A stretch of DNA of 63,836 bases, filler included, from Reclinomonas americana ATCC 50394 (Eukaryota), in assembly GCA_048213135.1 (NCBI GenBank). It is 8 parts of 5 records of this genome, joined end to end, with 100 filler letters (N's around TTAATTAATTAA, not from the genome) between each part and the next. Parts side by side here need not be neighbours in the genome. Positions count along the whole stretch, not along the records: positions 1 to 18,707 come from PS015484.1; positions 18,808 to 30,885 come from PS015485.1; positions 30,986 to 34,077 come from PS015485.1; positions 34,178 to 44,762 come from PS015485.1; positions 44,863 to 54,841 come from PS015485.1; positions 54,942 to 60,434 come from PS015486.1; positions 60,535 to 62,634 come from PS015490.1; positions 62,735 to 63,836 come from PS015514.1. The stretch is one strand, 5' to 3'. A program made the translations under genes and the position numbers. Numbering within the stretch: the stretch's first letter is position 1; each line of letters begins with the position of its first letter. Under the pieces are notes generated by a model that saw nothing but the letters and a program-made list of their open reading frames with translations, had not been told where the DNA came from and searched no databases. This document shows, piece after piece, positions 1,106 to 63,413 of this stretch.

Positions 1106-3015
1106 ATGTGGTCTTCCATACGCAGTGCAAGTCCTTTCCCACTGGAGCCACACGCACCGGGCAGTGTGTTTGTGGAGCGCGGAATGCGACATGTGGTGCC
1201 GTATTTCGACGACTTGTCGATGCACGCAAAGCGTGAGAGACAACTCCGCTCGCGCACTACGAGACGCTGCAGATCGCTGACTTGTGTGTGTGTCTCACTG
1301 TAGAGCGACACTATGGGCGATCGTTGATCGATGTGTTGCAGAATGAGTGGCGAGTTGAGTGCATTGTTGATGGTGGTGATCAGTCAGTGCGTTCTGATCG
1401 TCGTCCTCGCAGACCTTTGATCGGCAGTGGTATGCCGCATCGCTGGCTAACGGGCGCATCCGACTGAACGGTCGACTGGCCAGAGGAGGTATGCTCGTGC
1501 ACCTTGCATCTTCATGTCTCTGTCTCGCTTTCTCATCGAGAGTGCATGAGGCAGACGAGGTGCTCGGCAACCGCGATGTCATCTCTCAGTTTCTGCATCG
1601 TCACGAATCGCCCGTGTTGGCCGTGGAGCCGACGATCATTCGCGTGTACGAATCAGAGCTGGTCGCCGTCGACAAACCATCGTCGTGGCCTGTGCATCCG
1701 TGCGCCGGCAGGTGAGCCCTCTCGTCGCGAGTCAGCAGTGATGTTCTTAAGCTTGCTCATATATGGTTCGAGGTGCCAGATTTCATCGCAACACTGTCGT
1801 CGACTTTATGGCTCGTGTGCTGCAGAGGAACACATATCGTGAGTGTGTGTGTTGTGACTGTCGCTGCATGTGCCGACTGCTGACGGTGATGCAGCCGTGC
1901 ACCGATTGGATCGGTTGACCTCGGGACTCCTCCTGCTGGCCACCAACGTGACCGCTGCGCGGCGAATATCCGAGTTGAGTGCTTGCTCCCCTGCCTTTTC
2001 CTACCGTGCTGTATTTGCGAGGATGGAGTGGCTGATGATTTTGGAGTTGCTGTGCAGTTGGTTCGTCAAGAAGCGCGTACAAAAGTGGTACCTGGCACGA
2101 GCGGCAGGCGAGCTGCAGAGCACGTGCGTCGTCGACCTTGTGGCTCGGTGTGCACGTGATGGTTGCTCACCGATGACATATCGCAGTGCGGAATTCGAGA
2201 TCACCACCGGCCTCGAGTGCATAGACGCGCGTGCCGGAGTGTGGCAGTGCATTCCGGCGGCAGGCCTCGACGAGTCACGCACGGCGACTACACGATTTCG
2301 CCGTCTCTACTTTGATCACTCCGCGAATGAGACCGTCGTCCTGTGTTGCGTTTGTCGTGCGTGCGATGCGAGGGGACAGCTTGGTGGGTGCTGAAACTCG
2401 TCGACTGTCATGCACAGGCATGCCAATCACCGGACGAACCCATCAAGTTGCGTTGCGTCGCAAGTTGTCTTCGCCGTCGGCATGCCAACTCACTCGGGCT
2501 GAACGGGGAGACAGATCCGGCTCCACCTGCAACACATCGGCCATCCCCTGGTCGGCGACCCGTGGTACGGAGTCGGGCAGACAGCCGCCGATCACGCCAT
2601 GACAGAAGATGACCGACGAGTCGCCACACGTGCGTTCCCCGGGCCGGGAGTGACCTTGCCACTCCTCTCTGCCGGCGACAACGACAGCGACAAAGCGCAA
2701 CAGCAACCGAACTTGGAGCCACCGTTCCATTTGCAGGTAGACTCGAACGACAGCACGCGGCAGGGAGAGGCGATATCCCGCATCTTCCGTCGACTGGTGG
2801 CCGAGAATTTTGATCCCCACTGCCCCGTGTGCCACGCCAGCAGTTGCAACAGCGTGGTACGCGACCAGTGGATGACGCGACTGGCCGACCAGCAGCACCA
2901 CATCTGCCTGCACGCAATGCGTGTATTGCTACCCGACGGGCGCGTCATCTCCGCCAAATTGCCGACATGGGTGGACCGAAGCCAGTTGTCGCCTGCCGAC
3001 AGCCAATTCCTCTAG
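1106..3015 (+). CDS. RluA-family RNA pseudouridine synthase (RPUSD2/Rib2-like), multi-exon
   Basis: Spliced motifs VVPYF, HRHE, VDKPSSWPVHP, catalytic VHRLDRLTSGLL, VQKWYLAR, PITGRTHQ|IRLHLQHIGHPLVGDPWY, ICLHA. Confidence 0.92.
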
Positions 3016-3074
3016 AGAATGTGTAAAACGTGACACACACACACACACACACACTGTATACCGGATTCCTTCCT

Positions 3075-3630
3075 TCATTGGTGTCGTTTCCGTGCACCAT
3101 GTCTCACGCCGCCAGCAGGCACAGGTGGCACTCGCGAGGAACCATCTGCGCGCCACTCTGTCAGACCGCGCATGTGACGATACGAGCACGAACACGCACA
3201 CACAGCACCTTTTCTTGTGGTCGACCCACTGCCGTGCCGCATGCCGCCTATTGGCATCGGTGGCGTAATGATGCTCACCGATGGCGTGGCGGTCTCTGCC
3301 GCCATTGACGACGACGACGACGATAATGCAGATCGCTGGGGCGGTGAGTCTGCGCAACCCGAAGCGTTTGATGAGTTTGTGTCGGCATCATCCACCTCAA
3401 CGCGCACATACTCACCGTCGTCGGGTAACCGCGAATACAACGACCATATCGAGTAGGCAAACGAGAACTGTGCGCCACCACAGTCAATCACGGAGCACCG
3501 TGCACCGCGTCCATCACCCGCCGCAACTTCGAGCATTTGCAGGAACAACAGCGAGGCCACCGACACCACAACGTACTTGAACTCGGGATCGGCGACACCG
3601 CCCGGTGGCAACGTGGTGTTGGCCAGCAGG
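3075..3630 (-). CDS. 3' part of a hypothetical membrane protein (runs out of a gap)
   Basis: Hydrophobic FKYVVVSVASLLFLQMLE|FSFAYSIWSLYSRL followed by a Ser-rich tail; two in-frame introns; TGA at 3075. Confidence 0.55.
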
Positions 3631-4681
3631 NNNNNNNNNNNNNNNNNNNNNNNNNNNNNNNNNNNNNNNNNNNNNNNNNNNNNNNNNNNNNNNNNNNNNN
3701 NNNNNNNNNNNNNNNNNNNNNNNNNNNNNNNNNNNNNNNNNNNNNNNNNNNNNNNNNNNNNNNNNNNNNNNNNNNNNNNNNNNNNNNNNNNNNNNNNNNN
3801 NNNNNNNNNNNNNNNNNNNNNNNNNNNNNNNNNNNNNNNNNNNNNNNNNNNNNNNNNNNNNNNNNNNNNNNNNNNNNNNNNNNNNNNNNNNNNNNNNNNN
3901 NNNNNNNNNNNNNNNNNNNNNNNNNNNNNNNNNNNNNNNNNNNNNNNNNNNNNNNNNNNNNNNNNNNNNNNNNNNNNNNNNNNNNNNNNNNNNNNNNNNN
4001 NNNNNNNNNNNNNNNNNNNNNNNNNNNNNNNNNNNNNNNNNNNNNNNNNNNNNNNNNNNNNNNNNNNNNNNNNNNNNNNNNNNNNNNNNNNNNNNNNNNN
4101 NNNNNNNNNNNNNNNNNNNNNNNNNNNNNNNNNNNNNNNNNNNNNNNNNNNNNNNNNNNNNNNNNNNNNNNNNNNNNNNNNNNNNNNNNNNNNNNNNNNN
4201 NNNNNNNNNNNNNNNNNNNNNNNNNNNNNNNNNNNNNNNNNNNNNNNNNNNNNNNNNNNNNNNNNNNNNNNNNNNNNNNNNNNNNNNNNNNNNNNNNNNN
4301 NNNNNNNNNNNNNNNNNNNNNNNNNNNNNNNNNNNNNNNNNNNNNNNNNNNNNNNNNNNNNNNNNNNNNNNNNNNNNNNNNNNNNNNNNNNNNNNNNNNN
4401 NNNNNNNNNNNNNNNNNNNNNNNNNNNNNNNNNNNNNNNNNNNNNNNNNNNNNNNNNNNNNNNNNNNNNNNNNNNNNNNNNNNNNNNNNNNNNNNNNNNN
4501 NNNNNNNNNNNNNNNNNNNNNNNNNNNNNNNNNNNNNNNNNNNNNNNNNNNNNNNNNNNNNNNNNNNNNGAGGGCGCAGAGGCTGAGGTTGGTGTGGTTG
4601 CTGCTGAGGATGAGGCCATCTAATCAATCTTTGTAGAGTCGTCGATTGCAGTGGATGATGGAATCCTTATCTTGTGGCACC

Positions 4682-5632
4682 ATGGGGCGTCAACGTTGCG
4701 TGTCTCAGCTCCTGTGCATGCGTGTGTCTCAATGTGAGAGGGGGAGAGTGTGTGTGTGTGTGTGCGCGCGCTGAGGGTGTGTCTGTCGCCGAGACATGTC
4801 GACTTTCCCGCCTCCTCCTCACACACTCGCATGCGCAGGGCGACAAGTGCAGCTTCCATCAGCACCACCACCACCACAAGCAGTTGTGCATTACACTCCC
4901 GACACACACACACTCACACCAGTCGCTCACTTGCATGTGCGTGTGTGCGCAGGAGGAAGAGGCAGAAGCGGACGACGCAGCCTATGTCGACGACAACGAC
5001 GATGATGTGGTGACTGGCGAGGACGATGAGCAGCAGGAGGGAGACGATGAGGACGACATTGATGATGATGCAGCTGCTCCAGTCCACGATGCATACAACG
5101 ACGATGATGACGACGATGATGATGATGATGAGTCTGACATGTCAGAGTCGGAAGTGCGTGCACTGCGCATGCATCTCGGGCGTCCGTGGAAGCTCGGCCA
5201 CAGAGGAGATGTTGATGATGATGATTATGGGGAGGGAGAGGGGGAGGATGATGACGGCGACGATGGGTTGAGAGCGGCGGTGCATGCGCATCGGTTTCCG
5301 GATGCCGAGAGCTCGGCCACGGCGCAGGTGATGGCGTGGGAGATGCAGGAGCAGGAGGCGAGAGTGACGCGGCATGCGCAGTGGGCGGCGTACATCTGTG
5401 CTGTGGATATGGTGTGTCTGTTGGGAGAAAGGGGGGGGAGAAGAGGAGACAACTGTGTGTGGACTAAAAACGTGCGTGTGCAGGTGCTGTGCTTCCGGCT
5501 GTTCCTGAAAAAGCCACACATCCGCACGGCCTTTGGTCTCCTGTTCTCCTCCAGTGGACTCATTGGATCGCTGTCGCAGAAGAAGGGCATGGTGCTCATG
5601 GTGCGTGTGTGCTCGTACTGTGTGTGTGTTAC
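4682..5632 (+). CDS. 5' part of a hypothetical membrane protein with a long acidic N-terminus (runs into a gap)
   Basis: Asp/Glu tract, then WAAYICAVDM|VLCFRLF...TAFGLLFSSSGLIGSLSQKKGMVLM| with GT-AG introns; start codon uncertain (4655 or 4682). Confidence 0.55.
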
Positions 5633-5952: not shown

Positions 5953-8386
5953 GTCAGACGCTGAGCATTGTGCTCAAGGCCGTCTGTCGACGCAAGTGGC
6001 GCAACTTTAGCTTTGATGTGCTGGAACTGGTGTGTGGCTTTGATGGCGCCGATGAGTTTTTTGGCACGCTGCTGCGTAAGTGTCGAGCTGTTCTCGAGTC
6101 TATTGGCTTTGGTGTGTCTTTTAGTGTGTTTTGCACGTCCGTCGGATGCCTGCGTCGTTGTGTTCACACGGTGGTGCAGTCGAACTGAAGATCGCCGTCA
6201 TGGAGGTGCTGGTCACGGTGGCCATGGCACACTCGAATGTCAACCTCAATGCGCTGCTCGAGTACTTTGTGTTGCACGATCTCACAGAGCCAATACTAGG
6301 GGTCTGTGTTTGTGTGCGTGCCACCTTCTCTTCTCGTCACTGGCTCTGACGGTTGTGTGCTGCTGACAGCTGCTGTGCGAAGTCAATGACAATCAGCAGG
6401 TCGTGCTTGATATTTTCGTGTTTCTCGCCGTGCTGATCAACTATCAGCGGCACGAGGCCGCCAACGTGTACTTGCGCAAACTCAACGAGCTGAAGCGACC
6501 CGAGTACTTTGAGGTGCGTGACCGCTTGTGTGACGGAGATGCCCTCTTATATTCACGTCGATCACAACAGAGTGTGTGTACCTCGCTGTACGTTCTCCTC
6601 TCCACCTGGCATCGAGTGTTTGCCGACTCGTCGCAAGCTCAGTCGGGCCTCCTCCCCTCGCTGTTCTCCATCTTTTCGGTGGTGGCAGAATCGCTCAACA
6701 TTCCTCCATTATTCGCGGCCTCCACCAACTCGTCGCAGACGTTGCGCATGCATGCACCTGTCATTCTTCGTCTTCTCGTCGATCTGTTCAACGCTCTTCG
6801 CGCAGATTCTATGTCATTGGCGCGCCCCTGCTGGTGCTCTTCGAGTTGTGCTGCTCCAACGACGCCTTTCTCACGTTTGTCACCACCGAGATGCCGCGTG
6901 TATGTTTGGCCGTGTACCGCGAACAGTTCACGCAGGCGGTGGTCCAGGAGGGCGGTCCATCGTCGGCACCACCCTCAACGGCAGCAACGGGAGAGAGTGC
7001 CCCGACCGCCGTGTTTCCGGATGCAGGTTCGTGTGCTGTTTATCCTTGTGACTCGTGTGTGTGCGTGTGTGTGTCGACCAACATCTGCCGACAACAGACT
7101 GTTATCTGCCGCCATTCTTGGGCGAGTTTATCATGATCTCCAATGTTATTCTTCTCGACAACAAGAGCGAACGCAATCGCCTCTACTCGAAACTCTGTCT
7201 CCTCATCTACCGGTGTCTGTCGGAGAACCTGGCTGCCTGCCGATTCCTGTTCAGGCAACTGTGCATCTGCAGCATCACCACGTGCTCGCGAGTTGCGTGT
7301 CACAAAGTTCAATCGTGGGGTGGAAACGGCTTGGTGGCTCATGCCTCACCGAGTACGCACGCACCAGGACGGCGAGCGTTTCTATCTCGAGCCGTGGGAA
7401 TTCTGTGGACGTCCCGTGCAGGCCGTATTACCAGTGTTGGCCGGCTACATGCGTAACTTTGCGAAGCGGAACCTGGATGTCGAGATATGGAGGTTTGCCT
7501 TTCTGTGTGTCTCGCCATTCTCCGCGGTGAGCTGACGGAGGAGAGCAGTGTGTGCACCGATGTTTTCCATCGCCTGGTCTGTTACGCACATGCCAACAAG
7601 CACAAGCTGGCGATTGACTGGAAGCTGATGTGGTCGGCGCTGCTGAGGTGGGTGTCATGCTGAGTCTGCAATGTGTTGCTGGTTGCATGTTGACGCGCAG
7701 CTGCACAGCTGCACGCCATTCATCTCCGACGACACAGTCTCGACACCGCGTGGAGAACAATTTTTGATGAATGTTGCGCAGGTGGTGGTGCCGCGCGATG
7801 TTGTGTCGCCCTTTGACTCACCGAGTCCGATTGCAGTATCTCATGACGCTGGAGTTGTGTGTGGTCGGTGGCCAGAAGTTTGTGCCCGACGCCGAGGAGA
7901 TGGATTTCTTGTTTTTTGAGTTGTTGCGATTGGAGGACGAGGTGCTCGCCACCATCCACCTGGGTGCGTGTGTGAACCCCGATTGAGTGGCACTGCGAGT
8001 TTTCACGACCTCATGTGCGTGGTACGCATGTGCACAGGGAGGAAACTGCGCAGTCGGCTGTGCGAGTTTCGGAATCTAGAGGCTGTGTTTACGCATTTTG
8101 GTCCCGTATTACGTGGGCAAGTGTTTCACGAAACCGAAGAGGTCGGTGTACACTTGTTGAACAACGGTGTGTTTCTCTGCGCATTCCCATTGTTTGTGTC
8201 TGTGCGCAGGCACTCGCGGTGCTCAAGTTGCATGCCGATTCGTTTACACCACGAGAGGAAGTAATGGGACTCGTGGACTCGTGGGAGGCCTATCGCCCAG
8301 CCGAGGACCTCGCATATTTCGGGCAGCTGTTGGTACACGTCGCACGGGAGAACTGGGATGTGCGACAACAAGAGGGCGACAAGTAA
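5953..8386 (+). CDS. ARMH3: Armadillo-like helical domain protein 3 (C10orf76/UPF0668 family), 5' end in gap
   Basis: Spliced blocks FDVLELVCGFDGAD, NVNLNALLEYF, FLAVLINYQRHEAANVYLRKL, LYSKLCLLIYRCLSEN, DWKLMWSALL, GQKFVPDAEEMDFLFFELLR follow the ARMH3 motif order. Confidence 0.8.
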
Positions 8387-8552: not shown

Positions 8553-11500
8553 TCAACTGTCATCCTCGGCTTCCTCAGCTTCCTGTTCTGCAATCGCTTG
8601 CTTGGCCTCGTAGTTGGCTTGTGCTTGTGCCAGCGCATGATGGAAAAGCGTCTGACTCGCTCCCGGCAGTACCGCACAGAGGCCGCCCAAAAACGCACCC
8701 TCGTCTGCAAAAAAACAAATGTCACTTTGTGAGCGAGAAAAACTAGAGCAGCGAGTGTCGGCGTACACTCAAATACGCAACGCTCATTGAGCTCCGCAAA
8801 GAACATGTGCGCATCGACTTCGTCAAGCGGTGACGTGTACGTGGTGATGTCGTCAATTTCCTGACCACGCTCATCCACATCCGGATCATCGACACCAAAT
8901 CGACCCTTGGCTTGAAGCTCGGCGCGCTTCGCCTCGTCAATCTGCGACTCAGCAAAATGAGTTGATCGCAGCAGCAACAAGAACAGCTAGCGGCGCGATA
9001 TCCACTCACGTCTTGCATGAATCGCTGAATCACGAGCGCATCCTCCTTCTCCAGGAAAGCGTCGCCGGACTTTACACGCAAGCGCAGCGCATTTGAGATG
9101 GTGGAAGCGGACACACAAAGGGGGAAACGAGCACGCACCTCAGGCTTCCTTTCGAGTTCGTCGTCGAGGTCAATGATGTCGTTCAGACCGTCATCGTCGT
9201 CGTCGCAGGATGGGTTGTTTTCCGCTGTCGTCCCAAACACACACATTGTCACATTTCAGCAAGTCGAACAAGCAAGAGAAAGGCTCCACACATTAAAGCA
9301 GACCTTCAACAGCATCCGCCAGTCGTGACAGTGCGTCAACCAGCACCTGCAACACCAGTGCAGCGTTCTCCGTCACCAGTGCCGGCACTCCCGGTTGTTG
9401 CATGATCGACAGCAGCGAAATCAGACCGAGGCACGTCATCTTTAGGTCGTGCGAACTGCCGGTGTTTGAAAAGCACAAAAATTGAGTGATTACAATCAGC
9501 AGCAGACGGACCAATGTGCGCGACGCACCGAGTCAATTGCGGAATAGCATCCATCCATTTGGAGAATGCAGCACCAGTGTGGCCGTGGTGCTCCAGCGAC
9601 TGCAATGCCAGCGTCGGGTCGTAGTAGAAGCAATCGGCAATCTGCAACACGACCACGACAGTGAATCCCACAGGCGAAGGAAACGGCGACAAGTCTGTCA
9701 CACGCACCACATCGACCAACTGGATAGTGAAGCGCATCTTCTGTGGCGGCTTGGCCACCAGACGCCTCAACGACATCTCCAGGAACTTGGGTATGCACTC
9801 GTCGATCTTGCCTCTGCACACTCGACGAAGTTAGCCATGGAGGCGAACACTTGTACACACACCCCTCCTCCCCCTCTCACTCGAGAGTCACAGCAAGCGC
9901 GGCAGGTGTCACGAAGTCTCAGTTCAAAGTTGTCATCAACAAAAAAGATTATCAGTGCTTCTTAGAAGGTAAACCATCATAGACTGCGTGCGGCGCTGCA
10001 GGACCCAAACAAGAAATCTTCCTCTCCCCCCTCCACCCCATGCAACTCGCCTGCAGTGATGCAACAGAGCCTCCATCATGATTGCGGCAGCACGAGGCTC
10101 CTTTTCCGACGTATCATTTGTGCTGTCCACACACTGCACGCAAGTGTCCCCCCACGGTCAGCCAACAATGTCGACAGGAGTAGACAAGAGTTGCAGACTG
10201 AGCGACGAACCAACTCGCACATCTCCATCACCATCGCCAAGTAATTGTCTTCCGGGGTACCGCGCAAGAACACGTCCACGTCGTGCGACAGGAAGTTCTC
10301 AAACACCGGTTCAATCTCTGCGCACCACGCGTGAGAAGAGTGGAGACAGTGCCCTCTTCTGTGCACTTCACATCTCACCTTGGAAGTAGTCTCGAGCACC
10401 TCCAGTGACGAACAGCGCATACAGACGACGCATGAATCCATACGTCTGCGGCGAGATCACTTGCGTGACAAACAGGAAACTCGACATGATGCGGCACACT
10501 TCGTCCAAAGAGTCTGCACAAACGGACGGATGTGAGTGTCTCGCGCGCGCATGAGAGACGTGGTGTGAGGTATCGTACAACGCACCGAGCTCCGACTCCT
10601 CGTCCGCCAACATGAGATTGAAAAAGTGGTACAGATACTGTTCCATCTCCAGGTAGATCTCCGGTGACGTCTGCACCGTCTCCAACAGCGTCTGCAGCGT
10701 CTTCAGGGTGGCGATGCCGGAGTAAATAATCTCCTGCGTCGCGTTGCCGTCCTTCATTTCTGCGTGGTAGCCGTAGTACACTTGCAACTGAAAATCACGA
10801 TCAAGTCAGTCAACAGATGGGGGGCGGGACGGGGAGAACAAGGACACACCAGACGATGCAACAGCTCGGCAGCCAGCGGAGAAATAACTTCGCCAAAGTT
10901 GACCACGAGTGCCTCCACTCCCGTCACCAGCTCGTCACTCTCAAACTCCGACATGAGTTGCAGCATCTTCTCCGTCAGCTCCGGCACCAGAGGAGCCAGA
11001 TGTTCGTTGACTGCTCGAAGACGGAGCATACATATTATGAGCACACGAGTAGTGGGGCGAAAAAGGCAATCACACACGTCGCGCCGAAACTCTTGTCCTC
11101 CTGAATAATCTCACGCATGGTTTGCGCCGCGTACACTCGCACCACCAGATCGGTCGAGGTGCACATCGAGTTCCACACACCCTCTGTCAGCTGCAGCAGA
11201 TTGTTGATGTCATTCCACTCGACCAGTGAAAACTTGTACACCAGCGCAATCGCCTGCCACGGGAAACAGTCAGCTCTTTGCCTCCCTCTCTCTCACCGAG
11301 CGAACAAGCATATCACAACGCAACTCGCGCTCGCAGATACACCACATCCGACGACAACTCCGGGTACACGTGAGTCATCAAAAAGCCCTCCATGTCGTGC
11401 TTGTTGCTCGTCGACATCAACAGCACGCCCAACTCTTCCACCNNNNNNNNNNNNNNNNNNNNNNGCGTACAGCGCCGCCTCCTTGTACAGCGTGTTACGC

Positions 11501-13548
11501 TCAGCAGGCGGCTGCGCATTGTACCTGCAGAAATGAACAGGCGGTGAGCCTACACGACGCGGTGAGACACAAAAAGGAAGGAGAACGCAACGAGTCCAAG
11601 AACTGCGAGATAAAATCCAACAGCGGGCGCATTGTCGACTTCTTTGGTCGATTGGCCAACATCGACTCCAGCACCGCACAAGCGGTTTTGCGCACAGACC
11701 GCACCTCATTAGCGACATCTGTGTGCACAGCACACGATTTGGTGAGATCGGGGAGAGACAAGCACTGAGGCACCAGCACCACAAACCATATTCAATGTGC
11801 AAGTAATCGTCGGGGGCCTCACGCCACATTGCCAGTGCCTCGTCGGTGAGCAACACCAACGGGAGGACGTACTCTGTCATGAATGTCAGGGCGTGTGGCC
11901 GAATAATATCCCACGCGTCAGCAAGAGTGATGCTGGGGGAGGGGAAGGAGGCGACGATCATGAGTGATGCGCCCTCTCCACATGGTGGGGAGAAATGAGA
12001 ACAGCTACTCACGCGCACTCGAAAAAGGTGCATGCGTGCACCACAATCGGGTCCGACACCGAGCTCGGGTTGTCTCTCCGCAGCTGCAAGATGTGCAAGA
12101 ATGCCTCCGTGCACGGCGCCGAGCACGACTCCAAGAACCGGGCTGAAAAGAGATTGATGCGTACATCCTTGCTCATTGTTGTCATGCGACCATGTCTGTG
12201 CGGCACACAAACGCGCTATGATGAGCGATGGACGTCCATTGACACGATACACATAACATACACACAGACCTGATAAAGTACTGCGACAATGTGTGTGCCG
12301 CCGCCCTCTTCATCGTCCATATGATGTGCTCGCTGCACACGTCTGGGTGCGTGTTGCCCGGGAATGTCGGCGGCGTGAGATACAACACACGGACCAGCAA
12401 CTCGACCACAGCATTCATAATCTCGAATCTCTCCAAAAAGACCGGCGGCAATTCGCACTGGTGTGGTGGCGCGAGGTCGAGTGTCAATCACCGCGGCGGT
12501 AACGATGACAAAGGCATGAGGCACTCACCGTGGTCATGTACTGCACAATCTTCAAGCACAGCCACGTGTATGTGGCGCGCGCGGCCACCACCGGCGGCAG
12601 GCTCGGTGCGTACTCTGCGCATGTCAACGACTGCGTGAGCTGCCGGAGAAACATTTCCGCAGCACAGCCACCAACAAAACCTTTTCCGTTCAGTTCCGCC
12701 TCCAGCTCCGACACGGTGGTCTGCAGGAACCCGCCAAACACCTCAATCGACTCGGCGCAATAGGCCACCAGTGGGTGACGCTCATCCTTGCGCTTCTTTC
12801 TACAGATTCAAGGGGAAGCAAAGTGAGTGTCTGCGGGGGAGGAAGATGGAGTAAAAAAAGGGAGACGACCCACCTGTACACATAGCAGAACTGCTTGGCC
12901 AAGAGCAGACCCGCATGCACCTCCTCCGGATCGCTGCTCGCCAACAAGCGCGAGATATCGGCGAGGAGCGTGGGAATGCCGCTCTTCTTCTGCACCACTT
13001 CCACACAGTACAACAGCTGATTCCGCACAATCGGCAGCGCCACGACAGTCGCCGCCACAATGTGCTGCAAAAAGTAGTGTTTGTCCTCGTCGTTCAGTGG
13101 CGCGTACAACTCCGGAACGCCAGTCCATCTGTGGCCACAGCACAGAGAGAGAGAGAGGCAGTTGAGCAAGAGGGAGATGAGGTGGGACACGTGAGAGGGC
13201 GAGTGAGATAGAGAGCGGGAGAGAGCGGGAGTCACATTTGAGCTCTTTCACGCACCTGAAGCGGATGAGGTTCTTCAGTTGCACCGAGGCCGCTTGCCGC
13301 ACATGCGGCTCATACTGCGCGTCCAGTGACACCTCAAAGAGCACTTGGATGAAGCCAGCCGAGTTGAACAAGTGCTACCAACACACAAACACAAACAAAA
13401 GCGTGTGTCTGCACATGCGCACATGCCCATGCCCACACACCAGACGCTCACTCACCTGCTCCACGTACTCCGCCGCGCGCTGCCTCTCTGCCGCATCCGC
13501 CAGCGCCGAGTACGACAAGTGCAGAAGATGGGCAAGCTCCGCGCTCAT
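8553..13548 (-). CDS. IPO7: Importin-7/8 (Nmd5/SAD2-like karyopherin beta), about 20 exons
   Basis: IBN_N motif VRQAASVQLKNLIRFRW, MWREAPDDYL, YKEAALY, HVYPELSSDVVYLRARA, IADCFYYDPTLAL, HDLKMTCLGL, acidic C-terminus with YTSPLDEVD. Confidence 0.88.
9915..9985 (-). ncRNA. Intronic box C/D snoRNA, U61/SNORD61-like guide for 18S rRNA
   Basis: Minus strand reads AGTCT-ATGATGG (box C)...CCTTCTAAGAAGCA-CTGA (D')...TGATGA (C')...CTGA (D)-GACT; terminal stem present; the D' guide is complementary to conserved SSU rRNA CUUCUUAGAGGG; it lies in an unusually long importin intron. Confidence 0.85.
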
Positions 13549-31000: not shown

Positions 31001-31316
31001 GCTCATTGCGCGTAAAGGTGTTGGCGTCGAACACACGAATCACACACGGCGTCTCCTCCAGTCCCGTATCAATCTGGAAAAACATGAGATGGTCCCACAC
31101 GACATTGGCCGCCTTCTTTGTGCCCTTGGTCTTCTGCGTCTGCTTGCCCACAGTCACACTGGCCACGGGATCCGAAGTGCCGCTCCGATCGCGACCTTTC
31201 AACTCCCGAGCCTCCAGCTATCATGCATGATCATTCAGCAATCGGGGCTCATGTCACCACAGAAAGATCAAGACAGAAAGAGAACTCACCAGCTCAACCT
31301 GCACCTGGTACGGCAT
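25036..31316 (-). CDS. Ferlin, copy B (paralogue of copy A, convergent)
   Basis: Same motif series: [108 protein letters not shown], then TAG. Confidence 0.93.
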
Positions 31317-37017: not shown

Positions 37018-37833
37018 TCACATGTCGTCTGACACGGGTTCCGCTCGCTCCACGTCACCATCCTCCAGATCATCGGCAGCGACCGCGTCGCCCGCCATTC
37101 CCTTTTCTACCACCACCACCACACCGCTCATGCGCGTGCCACTGGACGGCTTCCTATCGGCGTGGAAGCAGCGGCGGCACACGGCGACGTACTTGTCGGC
37201 ACCGCCAATGACCTCCACCGCACAGTCGCTGACAATGCGCTTGGAGAAGTGCGCATCCTCGCCACACGACATGCACACGGCAGTGAGCTTGACCACTGCC
37301 TCGGCCATTGGCAGCAGCTCCAGCACAGCACCGAATGGCTTTTGCTGGAAGGTGCCATCGAGGGCGGCCACAATCACCGTCTTGCCGAGGTTGGCGGCCT
37401 CGTCGCAGAATGACACCAGATCGGGGAAGAACTGACCCTCATCGATGCCAATGCAGTCGTGCGAGGCCACCAAGTGCGCTGCCTCGCTCAGTCGCTCGCA
37501 CGGGAACGCCGAGTACAGTTGTCTGTTGAGAACAGAGAGCGAGAGAGCGAGTGTGAGGTTTTCGCGCGCGCATCGCATTCGCATCATGACGTGTCTGCGC
37601 AACTGGTCGTGCGTGGCCACACAGTCGTCTGAGTACCGCACATCGCGCTTGTACTTGAGCACAAGGCACTTGCGACGCGCCAGTGTGTGTCGCTTCACAC
37701 GTCGCAAGAGCTCAGTCGACTTGCCCGCGAACATCGGGCCCAAGATCAACTGTTTGCGTGCGTGTGAGTGAGTGCGTGACAAAGAGAGAGTGTGTGAGAA
37801 TTGGCGCGAAACTTCAACACTTCCACGATCCAT
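37018..37833 (-). CDS. TK1: Thymidine kinase (TK1 family), 3 exons
   Basis: LILGPMFAGKSTELLRR, VATHD, IGIDEGQFF, VIVAALDGTFQQKPFG, KLTAVCMSC, VIGGADKYVAVCRRCF. Confidence 0.97.
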   Translation of the reverse strand: MDRGSVEVSRQFSHTLSLSRTHSHARKQLILGPMFAGKSTELLRRVKRHTLARRKCLVLKYKRDVRYSDDCVATHDQLRRHVMMRMRCARENLTLALSLSVLNRQLYSAFPCERLSEAAHLVASHDCIGIDEGQFFPDLVSFCDEAANLGKTVIVAALDGTFQQKPFGAVLELLPMAEAVVKLTAVCMSCGEDAHFSKRIVSDCAVEVIGGADKYVAVCRRCFHADRKPSSGTRMSGVVVVVEKGMAGDAVAADDLEDGDVERAEPVSDDM

Positions 37834-52046: not shown

Positions 52047-52117
52047 GTCACCCTTGAATTTTTCGCACGGGAACCCTTAAGTTTTCTTGGGCCTCTTCAT
52101 GTCACCCTTAAGTTTTT
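52047..52117. promoter_or_regulatory. Three imperfect copies of GTCACCCTTAAGTTTT upstream of the ferric reductase
   Basis: GTCACCCTTGAATTTTT at 52047, GAACCCTTAAGTTTT at 52071, GTCACCCTTAAGTTTTT at 52101. Confidence 0.5.
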
Positions 52118-54980: not shown

Positions 54981-57900
54981 TTCCGTCTGACTCGCTACAG
55001 AGGAGCCTACGTGTCCTTCGTTGTCGGCGTCGGCGGCGTCGGCGGAGGATGTGGTGCGGGCCGAGTGGCTGCTCGGTCGCAGTATCCTGCAATGCTTGCT
55101 TGCTGCGCATCAGCACCAGCTGCGGTCGATCGCGTTCCCGCTGCTGGGCACGACATTCCCCGTGTCTCGGGCGGCTGTTTCGTCGCTTTGTTTCTCGCAC
55201 ACACTGGACGATTTTCCGCCTGCGGCTCACTTTCTGCACGTGCGCAGGCCGTCTTCTTTGAGACTGTACTACGTTTCCTCAGCGATCACAGCTTCACTCC
55301 CGTGGCGTGCATACGCCTGGTTGACACGCGTCGCGACGTTGTGCATGTCATGTGCCAACAGGTTTGTGTGGAAAAGTGTGTCTTGTGAAATCTCGAATGC
55401 GCTTCTCACCCGTGCACATGCGAGATGCAGTTTGACCGCCGTGTTGGCTCGTCATTTGACGCTCGCTCCTCAGGCCTCTCCTCCACCGGTGCCTCGTCGA
55501 CCATTTCACTCTCCTCAGTGCCCGTATTTGATTCGTCGACCGGTGGCCTGCTGGCTCACTCAAGTGGCGGCAGCGGCAGCGCCAGCAGTAGTGTTGGTGG
55601 TGGCCTCGGTGGCAGCGCTAGTGGCAGCGGTGGGGGTACAGCAAGTGGAAACGGCGGCTCATCGCATCGTCGTCTGCGCGGTGCGGCACCGGTGAATCCC
55701 GACATGGCGCTCTCGCTGAGTGGTCGTGTGGGCCAGCAGCGTGCAGAGGTGGAGAAGCTGGCGCGCACTTGTCGTGTGCTCAGTCGATGGCAGCGAGCCG
55801 GCTCCGTCTCCGAGGCGCACCAGTCGGTGGTGGACGCGCAGTTCGATGTGGAAGACAAGGAATCCATGCTGTTGTCGGCGGTCGCCGCGCTTCGTCGTGA
55901 ACTACTGCAGCAGCCACCGCACGAGGAGGGTCTCACGCCGGCGCTGTCGGAGCTCGGGAAGCAGCGAACGTTGGCGGCGATGGCTCTCGAGCAATCGCTG
56001 CAGGGATTGTTGGATGCGCTGGAGTCGGAGCGCCGCGATACGACGGGCGAGCTCGACGCATTGCAGCGTGTGTGGTCCGACATTGTGTCGCGCCACTCCA
56101 CGCCCATTCTCTTCAACGGCGACATTTCGGACTCGTCAGACACAAGTGTGGCCTCCAGTCCCACTCACGCTCTCTCCGATGTCGGTGAGTGAGGTCGCCA
56201 CACTCACTGGTTTTCTTTATCATTCGGCACCACTCACACCACTCATGAATGCAGAGACACGACGGGTGACTCGTGATGGCATTCGGTGGATGCATGCTCA
56301 TGCTGACGCGATTCGACTCGCCGCCGAACGCACACAGCGCGTATGTGCCGAGGGTGGCGAGCTGTCGGAGTGGTTGGAGGCGCTGCAGGACGAAGATGGT
56401 GTGTTGTCGCATGCGCTGACGGCGGGAGTGGCACTGTGGTCCGAGCATGGTGCGCGGTTACGCGGAGCCGTGCAATGTGGCATCGATGAGGTGCGTTTGC
56501 TTGTGGTGGAGTGACTACACCGATTGACGACTGCGTGTGGCTGACTTGGGTTTCTCTCAACAGATGCATCGGCGCCTTGATCGCATTGTCACCGCGGAGC
56601 GAGTGGCCAAGGAGAAGAGATTACAGGCGAGCAAGCATGCGGCGCGACAGCATCGCATTCGACTGGAGGGCGCACTGCACGAATTGAAGCGCCTGGAGTC
56701 CAAGGCCGCACCGGTTCGCTTACTCACAGTATGAGAGAGGTGGTGTGGGAAACTCATGAAGCTGGCTGGTATGCAGGTGGCCTCGGTGGTGTGTGCCGAT
56801 GGAGAGCCGCTGACTCCGCTGTTGGATGTGGTCGCCGGTGACGACGACGAGCACTTCCCCGATGCGCGACTGCTTCGACTCGACGCTGTCAAGGTGAAGT
56901 GATGCACTCATGCATGCACGCACGGAGGTGATTGCTGAAACCACACGCGCACCGTGCAGCAACTGGGCTACATGGTGAAGCTGGTGGCCGCAATGCGCAC
57001 TATGGATGAAATGTTCCCGTACGTATACGCCGTGCGTTATCCTGACATTGCAGTTGGCGAGGTGCGACGCGGTGTGATGTCGAATGCGTGCGTGCGTGCA
57101 TGAGTCGCACTCACACAGCACGTGGTGTCGTAGGTACAATTGAGTCCGCCAGTGACCATGTTCTACGAGGCACTGGTGGCGGAGAGCCGTTCTACCAACG
57201 GCGATGTCTCACATCTGGTGGACGAGTTCACTGTGTACATTGCGGCGTCGCGGCTCGGTGCCGGCATCAAAGTGGAGGTCGACGACTTCTGGGAGGAACT
57301 GCGCGCAGCCGTGTTGTACAATACGAATCGCGATTGGCTGCATAGGGCGCCAAGCACCGCCGTGTCGGTACGCGTCACATGTCGCCGACAAGCTGTGTGT
57401 CGGCAGCGTATCTTACTTGAATTATGTGCAGGGAACTGTGTTGTGGGATTCACTCACCCAGTGGTTGTCGCTTGGACACCCGATCCGCATCCTGTCTCCA
57501 TCGTTCCACGCCGTCGATAGCAAGTTCCTCGACATGCTGCTGACTGCACGCACACAATCGTCGTCGTCTGCCGTCACCTCCACCGGCAAACTTCTTGCGG
57601 TCTCTGTTCTCGGAACCAGCGGCAGTGGCAAGTTGAGTGTTTGGCCGTCCATTAGTTTTCCCAGCCCGACTCACTCAGCGTGCAACATGCAGGTCGACTC
57701 TTCTCAGGGAGCTCTTCCGCTGCGATTTCGAGGTGTCAGACGTGTCACGCAAGCGCGGCGTCATGCTGACACACAAGCCCGTCACTGAGGTTGCTCGCGT
57801 GCGTGATGTGGTTGTGATGGACACGGATGGCCTCGAGTCGACTACCGACCAGGAACGGTTCGTTCTCTCTGTCCTTTTTTGTTGCATGGCAGATCCACTT

Positions 57901-60434
57901 ATACTGTGTTTGTATTCGACGAACAGGTGGAACATGCAACGACTGGCGGTCATGATGCTGGCCGTGTCCAACGTGGTGTTGCTGAATGTGAGCAGTGCGC
58001 GTCTGGAGGAAGATGCTGAGACACTGTGCGAAGCCTGTATGGTGGCACTCAAGCAGGTGAGTGGGACGAAAAGAGAGAGGGAGAGGGAGAGAGAAAGTCT
58101 CGTTTGCTGACGCAGTGCGTGCAGAGTGTCGTGCGCATTGTTCCACCACGCTTCTTCTTCGTGGTCCGTGATGCCAGTGAACTCGCCGACTGGACTGCCA
58201 GTATCCAGCAGACGCTGAGAAGAGCGGCTGAGCGGCATCACATCGATCTGGAAGATCTGCCATTCCTCACCAGTGACGATAGTGTGGTCCACTTGCCGTC
58301 GGTGCGTGGCCATGATGCTTCTTTGTTGTTACTCACTGTGAATGATTTCACTCATGCTGGTCTCTTGTCGCGGGCACACAGCTGCTGGATTTGGACTCGA
58401 CCGCTTGCAGTCTGCTCGAGGATTTGCGGACGACCATCTTTTCGTATGCGAGCTACACTGGTGAGTTCGCACGCTCGTGAACAACCAATCCCCACTGATC
58501 GCGTGCTCATATCTATGTGCACAGCATGGACTGGTCTCTATCGCGATACACTCGTCTGGTGATTCCGATCTCTTTCTGCCCGAATCACTACAACAACAAC
58601 TCACTTTGTGCTTTCTTTCCTACAGGTCCGATCAACGAGACCGCACGTGGTCGCCGGTGCTCGCCGCTCTGGGCCGACCACTGCGCGACGAAGAAGCGCA
58701 TGATTCGCCGTCGCCCGACGCTTCCTCTGGAAGCGAGTTGGCGAGACTGCGTGAACGAGCCGGTGTGATTCAAGAAATGTTGGATAAGCAGTCGTCGCTC
58801 GTGTCGGCACTCTCCAACGTGCGCTCGCTTGCTCGCTCCTCGCCGTGTGTTCTACGAGTCGACGCACTCACTGTTTCCTCATCTGTGCTGTGCAGTTTAT
58901 CGAGACGCACGAGGCTCGCTTGTATGCCATTCGAGACGGCATCGTGGAGACGAGTCGCTTGCGGGAGGCATTCGACACGCTGCGAGTTTCGTGTGCCACC
59001 ATCGTCGACGCTGTTTGTTTTCGTCGCTGATGTAGTGTCGCAGAGCCTCTTGCCGAGCCACCGCGAGCTGCAGCATGCTCTTGCGCTGTGCGAAGTCAGC
59101 TTGACTGACGACAGCGCGCTGCCGAGCGACGATCGCAATGTGCTGAACGTACACCGCAGCTTGCCGCTGGGCCAGCTCATTCTCACCGCCATGAGTGCCA
59201 ACAATGTGTTTGAGTTGCGTACACAACGAGCGCCTCTGGTGTTGCTGTCACCTCACTCACGGTACACGCTGTACAGGGCCACCGAAGCTTATGCGGCGTG
59301 CGGCCTCGACACTGTCCGCGGTACGTTCCGTCAATACGAGGAGACTTCGACGGCGTTCGCTTCCGCCCTGACCGTGCGAGGTGCCCGGCTGACGCCAAGT
59401 GAGTTTCTTCATTGCATACTGCGCGCTGTGCTCGGACTCATCACAGTTGACGCTGCCGCAGTCCTCCTGCTACCGATTCAGCGCATGCAACAGGTGAGAC
59501 TGGCGATCAAATGCCATGTTGCCCGTTTGTTTCGTGTCCTGACGTGTGCGGCCGCAGTACCATTTGTTGCTGGAGCGTGCTATCCGACACACGCCGTCTC
59601 TGTTCCGCACGTACATGCCGATCCGCTCGCCAGACGGCACGTACGGACTCAGTGACAGAATGGATGAAGTGCCGGAGATTGAGCGTGAGAGGCAAGCCTA
59701 TCACTTTGTGCTGCAAAGCGTGAAGGAATTGGAGCTGCGCATGGTTGCGCCAGAGCTGCAAGCATCGCTGGCCTTGCCACCGTCGCGCGGTGATTCTCGT
59801 CAGCTTGTGCGTCACTCTCCGCTAAAGTTGTCGACACCGGCACGACTCTTCCGACACGGCGACACGACGCCTGTGGAGCTGGCTCTCTTTTCCGATTGTT
59901 GCGTGCTCGGCAAGTCCGCCGGCGATTCGTGCATGCTGCTCACGGTGTGGAACGCAGATTTCGTGTTCCGGCGCCCTGTCAGTGCTCGGAAACGGCAGGG
60001 TCGAGAGACAGCCACAGTGTGGCCACTGTCGCAAGTCGTATCGTGTGCAGAAGCCGGTGAACCGCCAGCTGGTGAGTTCCGCGCTGCATGCGCGATGTTG
60101 CTGTGCGTGCTCATTTGGTGATGTGCATGTAGGCCTGAAAGATGCCCGGCTCGGCGGCTTCTGGTTTGCCGTGCAATGCGGCGTGCCAAAGAGCAAGACG
60201 TGCTTGTTTTGGTGCCACGATGAGCGAGAGGTAACTTACTCAAGTGCCTCCTCTTTCTCTCTCTCTCTGTCTCTTCCTCGAGCCTTACGTTGTGTTTCCA
60301 CCCCTCTGCGGCAGGCCAAAGAGTGGGTAAACGACGTCAATCGGTTATTGCGTGCGCAGCGCCGCTTGTCTGACACATCCCTGAACGGCTTCTCCATCTC
60401 ACCCGATCAACGACGAGAGAGAAACAGCGGGCCA
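54981..60434 (+). CDS. Large fusion protein: Macro domain - coiled coil - VLIG/RHD3-type P-loop GTPase - DH (RhoGEF) - PH; both ends in gaps
   Basis: Macro SILQCLLAAHQHQLRSIAFPLLGT; GTPase VSVLGTSGSGK|STLLRELF, VVMDTDG, LAVSNVVLLNV, FFVVRD; DH LLLPIQRMQQ|YHLLLERAIRHTP; PH LALFSDCCVLGK, AKEWVNDV; frame continuous through hand-spliced junctions. Confidence 0.7.
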
Positions 60435-60534: not shown

Positions 60535-62531
60535 GGAGCGCCTGCCGGCGGATCCCACCAGACCAGGCAGTCACTCGGGTGGTCACGGTACGCACCATGT
60601 AGCCATGCACACTCTATTTCATAATCATCTCACTGTCTCCTCGCGTTCCAGAGCGTCTGTTCGAGTTCCCTCCGATTCAGCTTCGCAAGTCGTTGCGTCT
60701 CCCGCTCTCGTTCCGTTGGCAGCGGCCGTCGTCTGACTCCTTATCGTTGCACAGCACACCAATGGCGCACCCGATGATGGCCCACGATTCATTGGGGTCG
60801 CTGACCTCGCCGGATCTGGAGGGGGCGGAGCAGGAGGCGCGTGAGTTTGTCAACAAGTTGAATGTGAATCTGCCGGCGGTGAACAGCCGCGGACCAAAAT
60901 CGAGGAGTGTCGGACCGACGCCGCCAGCCAGCAGCCGCGGTGGACCGCCAGTGTCTGCTGGTCGAGTGGTGGGTGGAGGCGGCGCGGGGCAATCGGCCGC
61001 CGCCGCCGCCGCCGCTGGTGCCGCAGGGCGTCCATCTATCGCCAATGTCCGCGCTGGGGCTCGCGGCGCGGTGTCGATTCCACAGCCTCCGGCGGTGGCG
61101 CAACGGCGGCAATCCACTGTCGCTGATGACTCTCCGCCGCTGGTGCTCTCAGATGCTGGCGACTCGGATACCATGGTGAGTGTGCTCGCAACGCCGATTT
61201 CGCTTGCGTGCTTTCTCTTCTCACTCGAGCTTGACAGCCGGACAACGAGACGCCGTCGAGTGTGGCCATGGCTGGTGCAGGTCGGAAGCCGCACCACATT
61301 CCGCAAAAGAGGCGGTTGACCCGCCCCTCGGGCCCCACCATTGTCATCAACAACGGATCTCCACCGAGCAAGTTGCGTCGCCCGCATCGATGCTCTTCGC
61401 ACACAAGGATTTTTCGTTCTCACTCTTTTTTTCCGCTTCACAGAGCAAGTCCATCGCTCGCCACACCATCATTTATGGCCAACGAGCCGCCGGCGGCCGC
61501 GGCAGGAGCCGGTGCAGCGGCCGGGAGGAACCGTATTGTGGCCAATGCGCCGACGGTGGCGCCTCACCGCAAGCCGACTCGCGTGGTCGGCTATGCTGCC
61601 ATTCATCCAACGCAGATGGTGTTCCCAGGCGACGCGGTCGACTCGGAAGACGAGGCTGACGCGGCCGCCGTGATTCCTCTCAGTGGGGTATGTTTTCTCC
61701 ACCATGGTTCTCTTTCTCAACCATTCACTCATCGCACTTGCCTCAGCCGGCCAAACCCGTCCAACCAGTGGGACGTCAGGCTGGTCGAGGGGCCGCCGCT
61801 CCGCGTGGTCGTGTCCGTGCCGGTGTTCGACTGATGGCCAAGGCGGGAGTGCCGGATGGTGTTGGCAAGATCGAGGTGTGTTCAGTTCGGCATGCCGGGT
61901 GGACACACAGTGAGTAGCATGGCTTCTCATTGCGTATGTGTGTGTGTGCAGAGTCCCGACGACAGCACCGGCTCCGACAGCGATGTTGGCGAGCAAGATG
62001 TGCCCGTGGTGGAACCCACAGGCCATGCTGCTGCCGCCCGAGTGTCTGCGGCCTTGCGCAACGGGGTGAGTCGATTGTCGCCCGCCCTCCCACTCCTCCC
62101 TATCTCACTCATTATTTGTGCTGCCCTCCCTCCGCTGCAGCGCGCACCACGGCGGATGAATGCGAATCCACAGACCAAGAGCTCCAGTCCAGTGGTGCAG
62201 CGCGTGGAGAACGGCTCGGGTGGCTCGGGTGCCAGTGGCGCAGCCACTGGCAGCAGCGGCGACAGCGGCAACGGTCGCGGTGGTGCAGCCTCTCTGTCAC
62301 CCGTGCGTAAAGCGGGTGGCGGGCGCAACCGCCTGGCCGACGCCAACCGCAAGCTCGTCTCCATTTACGGTGGCGATCCACTCGGTCCGAAGTCCAAGCG
62401 CGGACGCGCTGCGGCCATGGCCCGCGCCGCCATAGCCGCCCGCTCTGCCGCGCAGGACGTCTCCGCCGATCTGGAGGACGCCAGCGAACCCGGTCCATCC
62501 GACATTAGCGCTGCGCAATCAGAAGTCGACT
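60535..62531 (+). CDS. Disordered Ala/Gly/Ser/Pro-rich multi-exon fragment, possibly the tail of the upstream DH-PH gene
   Basis: GC-rich exons with GT-AG introns; no recognisable domain. Confidence 0.45.
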
Positions 62532-62550
62532 GTTGCGTTTCTTGATTGAG

Positions 62551-62552
<2 letters not shown>

Positions 62553-62630
<78 letters not shown>
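62553..62630. repeat. (GA)n microsatellite
   Basis: Uninterrupted GA run of about 75 nt at a contig end. Confidence 0.95.
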
Positions 62631-62633
<3 letters not shown>

Positions 62634-62816
62634 GNNNNNNNNNNNNNNNNNNNNNNNNNNNNNNNNNNNNNNNNNNNNTTAATTAATTAANNNNNNNNNN
62701 NNNNNNNNNNNNNNNNNNNNNNNNNNNNNNNNNNTTTTATTGTGGGTCGCGCATTGCCTTGATTCATTGGATCGTGTCTCACATGTTTGCATGCAGACGG
62801 AACTGGCGACACACAG

Positions 62817-63413
62817 TGTCAGCAGTCCGCGCAACCAGTCGGCGTCGGCAGGAAGCACACGCTTCGAGTCACGCCCAGTGAACGACGGGCAGAAGATGGA
62901 GATGATTTTGAAGGCGGAGCCTGGCGAGGACAAGATGTTTGCGGCCAAGCAGCGCGTGGAGGCGCCAGTGAGCGAGGAGGCCACGGTTTGTCTCTTTGTA
63001 GTTTGCATTGTGACAGGAAGGTGATCCTCATTATTCATGGTTTATAGTTCCCCCGGAAACACACTCGTACGGTCGAGACGATTCGTCGTGATTCACACGA
63101 CTTGATTCGGGATCGCTCGGACGAGAACCTGCAACGAAAGATGTTTGACCGACGCAAGGCTGGCGATTTTGCACCACAGTTGCGATGACTCTTCTTTCTT
63201 TGTTTGTGCATCTCGCTTGGAGCTCAGTATCCGCTGCACACAGATCTCGCGACATTATCTCTCAACCCGAACAAGTTTCGGCACCGGCATCACCACGTCG
63301 AGCGGCCACGACCAACACGGAGGACGGCTTGAAGCGCAAGATCCGAGAAAAAGTCAACCAGGCCGGATCGAGTGCTGCCACAGTGTTCCGGACACTCACG
63401 CGCGGCAAGGACA
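62817..63413 (+). CDS. Internal exons of a hypothetical protein
   Basis: Three in-frame exons ending LKRKIREKVNQAGSSAATVFRTLTRGKD, possibly leading into an EF-hand-like segment. Confidence 0.45.

Follow-up and report, generated by a model that had tools for sequence, protein, structure and literature searches.

Shifted 5' splice sites occur almost only after exons that do not end in G in a 64-kb window of Reclinomonas americana nuclear DNA

How a single U1 small nuclear RNA (snRNA) reads highly diverse 5' splice sites (donors) is an old question. In the classical dependence between a G at the last exon base (-1) and the first intron positions, described by maximal dependence decomposition and in later comparative studies, complementarity to U1 on the exon side and on the intron side trade off. 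Register shifting of U1 has, to our knowledge, been demonstrated only at a handful of human sites, with minigenes. Here we describe the donors of one 64-kb window of nuclear DNA of Reclinomonas americana ATCC 50394 (63,836 nucleotides of assembly GCA_048213135.1, the whole stretch that was analysed), whose introns were predicted from sequence alone. Many of these introns start with a donor in which the consensus downstream of the GT is displaced by exactly one base, and such shifted donors are found almost exclusively after exons that end in A, C or T.

The closest described system is human, where the +1-shifted register has been proven experimentally (Roca and Krainer 2009, as cited in PMC4856993). 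At the human sites, as in the window, cleavage at the GU is kept and the remaining consensus is moved by one base; the intron's G+1 is proposed there to pair with C9 of U1, as we propose below, and the model oligonucleotide ACA/GUCAAGUAUA (PMC4856993, Table 2; the slash marks the exon-intron boundary throughout) has an exon end other than G, like the shifted donors of the window. More generally, the human bulge and asymmetric-loop registers (Tan et al. 2016, PMC4856993) have one extra nucleotide between the GU and the downstream G-U, as we observe here. The differences concern frequency and sequence. All proven human bulge and asymmetric-loop registers together account for 3,119 of 201,541 sites (1.5%; PMC4856993), and the shifted register is a rare exception in human, whereas the shifted class takes in 46 of the 206 introns of the window (22%) and the majority of those that follow a base other than G (44 of 79). 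The human shifted motif, as given in that source, is A-rich, while that of the window is GUUGCGU.

A second point of comparison is the report of Roy and Bowser (10.1101/2022.06.08.495308) on species with GC-rich GUGCGY donors and C at +4, which the window resembles. According to that report, U1 is standard in Thecamonas and Mamiellales, which prefer C at +4, and Mastigamoeba combines the same preference with an altered U1. Its sections on U1 give one consensus per species and speak of no second register and of no influence of -1. A full-text literature search turned up no genome in which shifted donors form a major class (reports under the organism's name may be overlooked), and the shifted motif strings (GTTGCGT, GTTGAGT, GTTNNGT and their RNA forms) were found in no splicing paper. 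The register is already known; the scale and strictness of the rule are new, as far as our literature search shows.

Introns were called with a generalised hidden Markov model gene parser written for this analysis, which trained its own coding potential, intron content, intron length, acceptor matrix and branch-site matrix, the 3' models being seeded with introns that have GTG[AC]GT donors. An initial parse, in which the models for length and for the 3' end were flat, was discarded, as most of the 38 long introns that it called were wrong. The donor-blind parse scored every GT equally and used neither -1 nor +3 to +9; the refined parse scored the donor on intron positions +3 to +9 and never used exon bases, including -1. 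Small gene models antisense to larger ones were removed before counting, which left 200 of 211 introns in the donor-blind parse and 206 of 212 in the refined parse, the latter in 22 gene models and with a median length of 69 nt. Two donor calls of the refined set (25275 and 19937) were amended from a paralogue alignment. The shifted class comprises the donors GTTG[AC]GT, GTTNNGT and GTTG[AC]GV.

The refined parse yields 46 shifted, 118 canonical and 42 other donors. The base before the shifted ones is A in 17 cases, T in 16, C in 11 and G in 2, as against G before 96 of the 118 canonical and 29 of the 42 other donors (shifted versus canonical, Fisher p=6.9e-21). The original prediction had claimed just this near-exclusion of G, and had named the same two exceptions, 19418 and 25275. 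The donor-blind parse gives a similar picture, with G before 1 of 37 shifted and 83 of 100 canonical donors (p=7e-19), and the proposed contingency test of G at -1 against G at +6, run here on the predicted introns of this parse, gives an odds ratio of 0.078 (cells 9/105/45/41, p=1.6e-12). The pattern is also visible in raw motif counts on both strands: the 45 copies of GTTG[AC]GT are preceded by T (19), A (13), C (10) or G (3), and the 199 copies of GTG[AC]GT by G (61), T (53), C (47) or A (38). The third G-preceded copy, g/GTTGAGT at 54819-54826 (+), belongs to no gene model, and a gap follows 15 nt after it. Sixteen further GTTG[AC]GT motifs were not chosen by the parser, of which one (25275) was accepted later through the paralogue alignment; several of the others adjoin gaps (31632, 62532) and may be real donors.

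When donor classes are ignored altogether, the base at -1 shares 0.10-0.30 bits of mutual information with each of the positions +3 to +7 (p<=0.002, 2,000 shuffles), and no significant information with +8 to +10 in the same test. Fifteen of 16 tests of -2 or -3 against intron positions were non-significant, and the last, -2 with +5, was marginal (p=0.038, uncorrected). The coupling is limited to -1 with +3 to +7. The depletion of G goes below background: among 45 shifted donors one G was observed, where codon-position frequencies predict 14.4 (p=5e-7) and exonic NGTT predicts 9.9 (p=1.5e-4). It is milder against non-donor NGTTG across the window, of which 91 of 607 have G. Because G makes up just 15% of the bases before non-donor GTTG, part of this sub-background depletion is general.

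The coupling differs from the classical one. The 127 donors after G comprise 57 GTG[AC]G, 39 other GTNNGT, 29 other and 2 shifted sequences, so that the earlier description of them as mostly degenerate is about half true; the 79 donors after other bases comprise 44 shifted, 17 GTG[AC]G, 5 other GTNNGT and 13 other sequences, and were rightly described as mostly strong or shifted (61 of 79). Compensation among canonical donors, which had also been suggested, is not seen: after non-G there are 17 GTG[AC]G and 18 weaker donors, after G 57 and 68 (p=0.85), the non-G donors classed as other probably including miscalls. Since canonical strength is independent of -1, it is the shifted class, and not graded compensation, that accounts for the association. 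The classical dependence is a graded strengthening of +3 to +6, whereas here we find a discrete change of register by one base. Shifted donors are found in 17 of 22 gene models, and their share shows no heterogeneity among the 11 models that have at least six introns (p=0.75).

One rival reading is that the shifted motifs are artefacts of the gene models, either because GTTG[AC]GT sites are not donors or because the true junctions lie elsewhere. Homology fixes 15 of the 46 shifted junctions (one of the 15 after G), in a thymidine kinase (TK) gene, two ferlin-like genes and an RluA-type pseudouridine synthase gene, and the remaining 31 come from ab initio gene models alone; two calls needed manual correction, and the class of other donors surely contains miscalls. 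We nevertheless find an artefact barely credible. Offered 7,993 GT dinucleotides, the donor-blind parse took 21 of the 45 GTTG[AC]GT motifs (hypergeometric p=2e-22) and none of the 71 control heptamers GT[A/C/G]G[AC]GT (39 GTCG[AC]GT, 29 GTGG[AC]GT and 3 GTAG[AC]GT). That it selects this motif and never the controls shows GTTG[AC]GT to be a true donor, cleaved just ahead of its GTT. Furthermore, of 45 shifted introns, 33 would close the reading frame if they were retained, and miscalls would raise G towards background, not lower it.

The genes in which junctions are anchored by homology were placed by Pfam matches:

1.1-3.0 kb (+), RluA-type pseudouridine synthase gene
18978-25158 (+), ferlin A (ferlin-like)
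25036-31320 (-), ferlin B (ferlin-like)
about 37 kb (-), thymidine kinase gene

The spliced TK model aligns with nine homologues without gaps over the junction a/GTTGCGC at 37603; the homologue search gave 1,397 matches, the best of them 45-72% identical and from many eukaryotic groups. The RluA-type model is gap-free against the proteins P0123 and P0124 through CMPITGRTHQIRLH, which fixes t/GTTGCGT at 2345 and a/GTTGCGT at 2447, and its last exon had three matches among representative proteins, two of them useful. Between these two shifted donors lies an exon of 29 nt, 2418-2446 (+), that encodes MPITGRTHQ, part of a conserved pseudouridine-synthase motif. Among longer proteins, the ferlin search gave one match and the search with the ferric-reductase exon gave none. 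We also considered, and rejected, introns that start one base later, with exons ending in G before TT. This would require a CAGN acceptor and would give Thr-Asp at 24486, where the paralogue has Thr-His; the GT reading yields Thr-His.

The shape of the shifted donors indicates what has been moved. The extra base is T: blind-parse donors with GT at +6/+7 instead of +5/+6 have T (29), G (4), A (2) or C (2) at +3. The rest of the profile slides with it, as G has a frequency of.79 at canonical +3 and.84 at shifted +4, the next register-aligned G is at 1.0 in both profiles, and T is.81 at canonical +6 and.80 at shifted +7. Even the exon base fits, with the base composition at -1 of shifted donors (A.38, C.24, G.02, T.36) resembling that at canonical -2 (A.41, C.22, G.17, T.20). 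In all, 46 donors combine cleavage at the GU with a later consensus moved by exactly one base (U+3, G+6, U+7). The class is narrow: 33 of its 46 donors read GTTGCG.

Branch motif, branch distance, acceptor, length and GC content are alike in all donor classes, and therefore only donor recognition differs between them. In the window's introns a CAG acceptor follows the branch motif CTCAY/CTGAY at a distance of about 18-21 nt; the branch 5-mers CTCAC, CTCAT and CTGAC occur in all three classes, at median distances of 18-21.5 nt from the acceptor. On the same observations we reject introns of the U12 type (minor spliceosome), and the notion that shifted introns form a type of their own, since at branch site and acceptor they are identical to the others. 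As side observations, the donor consensus is GC-rich, with GTGCGT commoner than GTGAGT; CTCAC, CTCAT and CTGAC, not CTRAY, are most frequent among the branch motifs; and the acceptor is CAG in 188 of 206 introns.

We propose that donors use two registers of one U1-binding heptamer, G-[G/U]-U-N-N-G-U, whose first G would pair with C9 of U1. After an exon ending in G the heptamer would begin at -1, giving the canonical G/GUNNGU. After an exon ending in A, C or U the intron would usually bring its own G, as /GUUNNGU, mostly GUUGCGU. In the shifted donor, G+1 would pair with C9, U+2 would stand opposite C8, U+3 would pair with A7, and +4 to +7 would occupy the places of canonical +3 to +6, cleavage staying at the first GU in both registers. 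Coding constraints fix or bias the last base of the exon, and the intron start would adapt to it, which would result in a two-state link between exon end and intron start. We favour this reading, at a probability of roughly two in three, because the inserted T, the slid profiles, the exclusion of G at -1 and the paralogue switches described below all match its prediction.

The exclusion of G also speaks to a structural alternative, in which canonical pairing is retained (-1 with C9, G+1 with C8, U+2 with A7), one U is bulged, and +4 to +7 pair like canonical +3 to +6. Bulges at +2/+3 are documented in human (PMC4856993), and a run of two U would let either of them bulge. Such a register keeps the pair between -1G and C9, as the human ones do, and so predicts G at -1 as often as in canonical donors (81%), whereas it is found in 2 of 46; nor is any base other than T tolerated as the bulge. 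The near-exclusion of G contradicts this register, which we consider highly improbable.

The +1-shifted U1 register of the original prediction is thus the best fit to the pattern in cis; that U1 is the reader, and which of its bases pair, we infer, and the predicted pairing with a standard U1 is weak. Several observations weigh against the two-register reading in this respect. Folding with the standard U1 5' end (PMC4856993) gives a mean of -1.7 kcal/mol for shifted donors and -6.9 for canonical ones, and the +1 register is the minimum for just 15 of 45 shifted donors. Their preference for C at +5 (.84) mismatches the standard U1. A non-G/GUGCGU donor would form six contiguous pairs, which should outpair one pair, a mismatch and five pairs, and yet, of the donors that follow non-G, 44 are shifted and 17 are GTG[AC]G, in spite of the weaker pairing expected of the former. 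In addition, a G at -1 could wobble-pair with U10, so that its sub-background depletion needs an extra argument: sites with G at -1 would relax to the many degenerate canonical starts, and the narrow shifted motif would not be maintained there. The 31 junctions taken from ab initio models belong on the same side of the balance. Separately, the +3/+4 preferences of the window's donors mismatch the standard U1 5' end.

Since the standard U1 is predicted to pair weakly with shifted donors, the U1 of this organism may not be standard; with hypothetical U1 ends that have G at position 5, the +1 register is minimal in 29 of 45. A rival reading is a second U1 variant, or an altered U1 5' end (for example A8 for C8, with changes at 5-6), perfectly complementary to GUUGCGU, while a standard-type U1 reads G/GUNNGU. 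Poor pairing of GUUGCGU with the standard U1, the far stronger constraint on shifted than on canonical donors, and their excess over strong canonical donors after non-G would all follow, and U1 5' ends are reported to have co-evolved in Entamoeba and Mastigamoeba (10.1101/2022.06.08.495308). In the same report, T. trahens and Mamiellales keep a standard U1 despite their preference for C at +4. In the window, all remaining intron signals agree between the classes, and a variant U1 makes the same predictions in cis as the shift of a single U1, so that our data do not favour it. We regard it as unlikely, yet as a rival to be reckoned with.

The ferlins offer natural swaps of the exon base. Ferlin A and ferlin B lie tail to tail, are 59% identical over 1,274 residues, and align without gaps over ten shifted junctions. 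They have 16 intron positions in common, about 10 are found in A only and about 12 in B only; with just 16 common positions, turnover of introns since the duplication has been heavy. At 4 of the 16, one copy has G at -1 and a canonical donor, and the other has another base and a shifted donor. These are att/GTTGCGT (19011, ferlin A) and ctg/GTGAGTT (31289, ferlin B) at intron 1; cag/GTGCGCT (21714, ferlin A) and caa/GTTTCGT (28679, ferlin B), where both codons encode Gln; gcc/GTTTCGT (23443, ferlin A) and ctg/GTGTGTT (27010, ferlin B); and act/GTTGCGC (24486, ferlin A) and acg/GTATGTG (25680, ferlin B). The change in the last codon is synonymous in two of the four. Exon end and donor register vary together between the paralogues, and the four switches are independent events, which is not the case of the three common positions where both copies have shifted donors after non-G. 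One further position has g/GTCAGC in one copy and c/GTGAGT in the other, and at the remaining eight both copies have G at -1 before a canonical or a weak donor. An apparent exception, 19952, was a miscall, the true donor being g/GTCAGT at 19937. At 25275 the parser had taken a GT 12 nt downstream, and only from 25275 is the alignment with ferlin A free of gaps. Both exceptional donors after G (19418 and 25275) are at intron positions unique to one ferlin copy. A metagenome scan with a ferlin exon gave nine loci, all at 27-30% identity, too distant for comparison of orthologous introns.

The paralogues also bear on the view that the coupling comes not from U1 but from a later step (U5 loop 1, U6 positioning) or from intron history (a signature of gain, a mutational bias at junctions). 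The rapid turnover of intron positions between the ferlins would suit such a history, as would the general, if slight, under-representation of GGTTG. So would the bases at phase-0 shifted donors: the 18 sites have T (10), A (7), G (1) and C (0) at -1, although third codon positions overall are 32% C (p=0.001) and 39% G, and this preference for A or T is not a simple rule of pairing with U10. At these phase-0 donors the two-fold pyrimidine-ending and ATH (Ile) codons end in T in six of six cases; perhaps A and U are better tolerated than C opposite U10. Still, the switches took place at old, common positions, -1 is not contacted by U6, and the match of register-aligned profiles is what U1 pairing predicts. 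The introns have no common sequence family either: an all-against-all BLAST of the window's introns gave microsatellite matches alone, and no introner-like family. An origin outside U1 therefore seems quite improbable to us.

The shifted donors, with their homologous canonical counterparts, are given below with the last exon base in lower case; each rests on the predicted gene model unless another basis is named.

1353..1360 (+), shifted a/GTTGAGT, intron 59 nt, phase 0
1973..1980 (+), shifted a/GTTGAGT, intron 84 nt, phase 2
2344..2351 (+), shifted t/GTTGCGT, intron 73 nt, phase 1, upstream of the 29-nt RluA-type exon; model and P0123/P0124 alignment
2446..2453 (+), shifted a/GTTGCGT, intron 68 nt, phase 0; model and gap-free P0123/P0124 alignment
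4694..4701 (+), shifted c/GTTGCGT, intron 144 nt, phase 1
6740..6747 (+), shifted c/GTTGCGC, intron 65 nt, phase 2
7291..7298 (+), shifted a/GTTGCGT, intron 76 nt, phase 0
7772..7779 (+), shifted t/GTTGCGC, intron 64 nt, phase 0
8775..8782 (-), shifted c/GTTGCGT, intron 77 nt, phase 1
11318..11325 (-), shifted a/GTTGCGT, intron 71 nt, phase 0
11585..11592 (-), shifted c/GTTGCGT, intron 67 nt, phase 2
19010..19017 (+), shifted t/GTTGCGT, ferlin A intron 1, partner canonical after G; paralogue comparison
31283..31290 (-), canonical g/GTGAGTT, ferlin B intron 1, homologous to 19011; model and paralogue comparison
19417..19424 (+), shifted motif after G, g/GTTGAGT, intron 71 nt, phase 0, first exception, intron absent from ferlin B
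20157..20164 (+), shifted t/GTTGCGT, ferlin A, partner 30270 shifted; gap-free paralogue alignment
21001..21008 (+), shifted t/GTTGCGT, ferlin A, partner 29412 shifted; paralogue alignment
21136..21143 (+), shifted c/GTTGCGT, ferlin A, partner 29276 shifted; paralogue alignment
21713..21720 (+), canonical g/GTGCGCT, ferlin A, homologous to shifted 28679; paralogue alignment
23442..23449 (+), shifted c/GTTTCGT, ferlin A, partner 27010 canonical after G; paralogue alignment
27004..27011 (-), canonical g/GTGTGTT, ferlin B, homologous to 23443; paralogue alignment
24485..24492 (+), shifted t/GTTGCGC, ferlin A, partner 25680 canonical after G; paralogue alignment
25674..25681 (-), canonical g/GTATGTG, ferlin B, homologous to 24486; paralogue alignment
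25269..25276 (-), shifted motif after G, g/GTTGCGT, intron 86 nt, phase 2, second exception, intron absent from ferlin A; gap-free alignment with ferlin A
26228..26235 (-), shifted t/GTTGCGT, ferlin B only; paralogue alignment
28673..28680 (-), shifted a/GTTTCGT, ferlin B, partner 21714 canonical after G; paralogue alignment
29270..29277 (-), shifted a/GTTGAGT, ferlin B; paralogue alignment
29406..29413 (-), shifted t/GTTGCGC, ferlin B; paralogue alignment
30264..30271 (-), shifted t/GTTGCGT, ferlin B; paralogue alignment
33241..33248 (-), shifted t/GTTCAGT, intron 99 nt
33699..33706 (-), shifted a/GTTGTGT, intron 66 nt
34567..34574 (+), shifted t/GTTGCGT
35040..35047 (+), shifted a/GTTGCGG
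36801..36808 (+), shifted t/GTTGCGT
37597..37604 (-), shifted a/GTTGCGC, thymidine kinase gene, intron 81 nt; gap-free against nine homologues
38476..38483 (+), shifted t/GTTGCGT
40049..40056 (+), shifted c/GTTGCGT
41289..41296 (+), shifted a/GTTTCGT
42729..42736 (+), shifted c/GTTTCGT
46545..46552 (-), shifted t/GTTGCGT
49250..49257 (-), shifted c/GTTGCGC
49493..49500 (-), shifted c/GTTGCGT
51335..51342 (-), shifted t/GTTGCGC
55176..55183 (+), shifted t/GTTTCGT
57631..57638 (+), shifted a/GTTGAGT
58985..58992 (+), shifted a/GTTTCGT
59213..59220 (+), shifted a/GTTGCGT
60691..60698 (+), shifted c/GTTGCGT
61371..61378 (+), shifted a/GTTGCGT
63178..63185 (+), shifted a/GTTGCGA
63413..63420 (+), shifted a/GTTGCGT, intron 275 nt, less certain, close to the window end

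If a fifth of the introns of the whole genome are shifted, the species would provide hundreds to thousands of natural test cases of register choice, dictated by a single exon base and with paralogues that display coupled switches. If the two-register reading is true, the coding constraint on the last exon base would be absorbed by a move of the register and not by a stronger consensus. Gene finders with a single donor matrix will misplace such junctions, as our own parser did at 25275 and 19937. A broader proposition, to which we give even odds, is that the +1-shifted register is a mainstream and selectively maintained donor mode used by about one intron in five, with the last exon base as a binary switch, that the U1 end or a second U1 may have co-evolved toward GUUGCGU, and that the species would then be the first where the choice of register is a rule of the whole genome and no rare exception.

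The window has about 55% G+C, densely packed short introns and 21 runs of N. The Pfam search, made on the 150 longest open frames, placed several genes; besides those listed, there are matches to an SRF-type factor, an importin, a ferric reductase and an RHD3-like GTPase. Between about 52000 and 54840 the refined parse has no multi-intron model on either strand, its sole model being small and intron-less, at 53462-53647 (-); an open frame of 471 residues at 52112-53527 (+) has no Pfam match. Nine gaps are built as 44 N, TTAATTAATTAA and 44 N (e.g. 18708-18807, 30886-30985, 34078-34177 and 62635-62734) and look like a contig-joining linker with stops in every frame, for which reason frames and distances that span them are unreliable. 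In an Rfam scan of the window no family reaches its gathering score; at E<=1 there are two sub-threshold mir-598-like matches alone and no snRNA, hence no U1 gene. Both mir-598-like matches are at 44551-44602, one on each strand (35.6 and 29.4 bits, for a gathering score of 69), and this sequence is probably a palindromic repeat.

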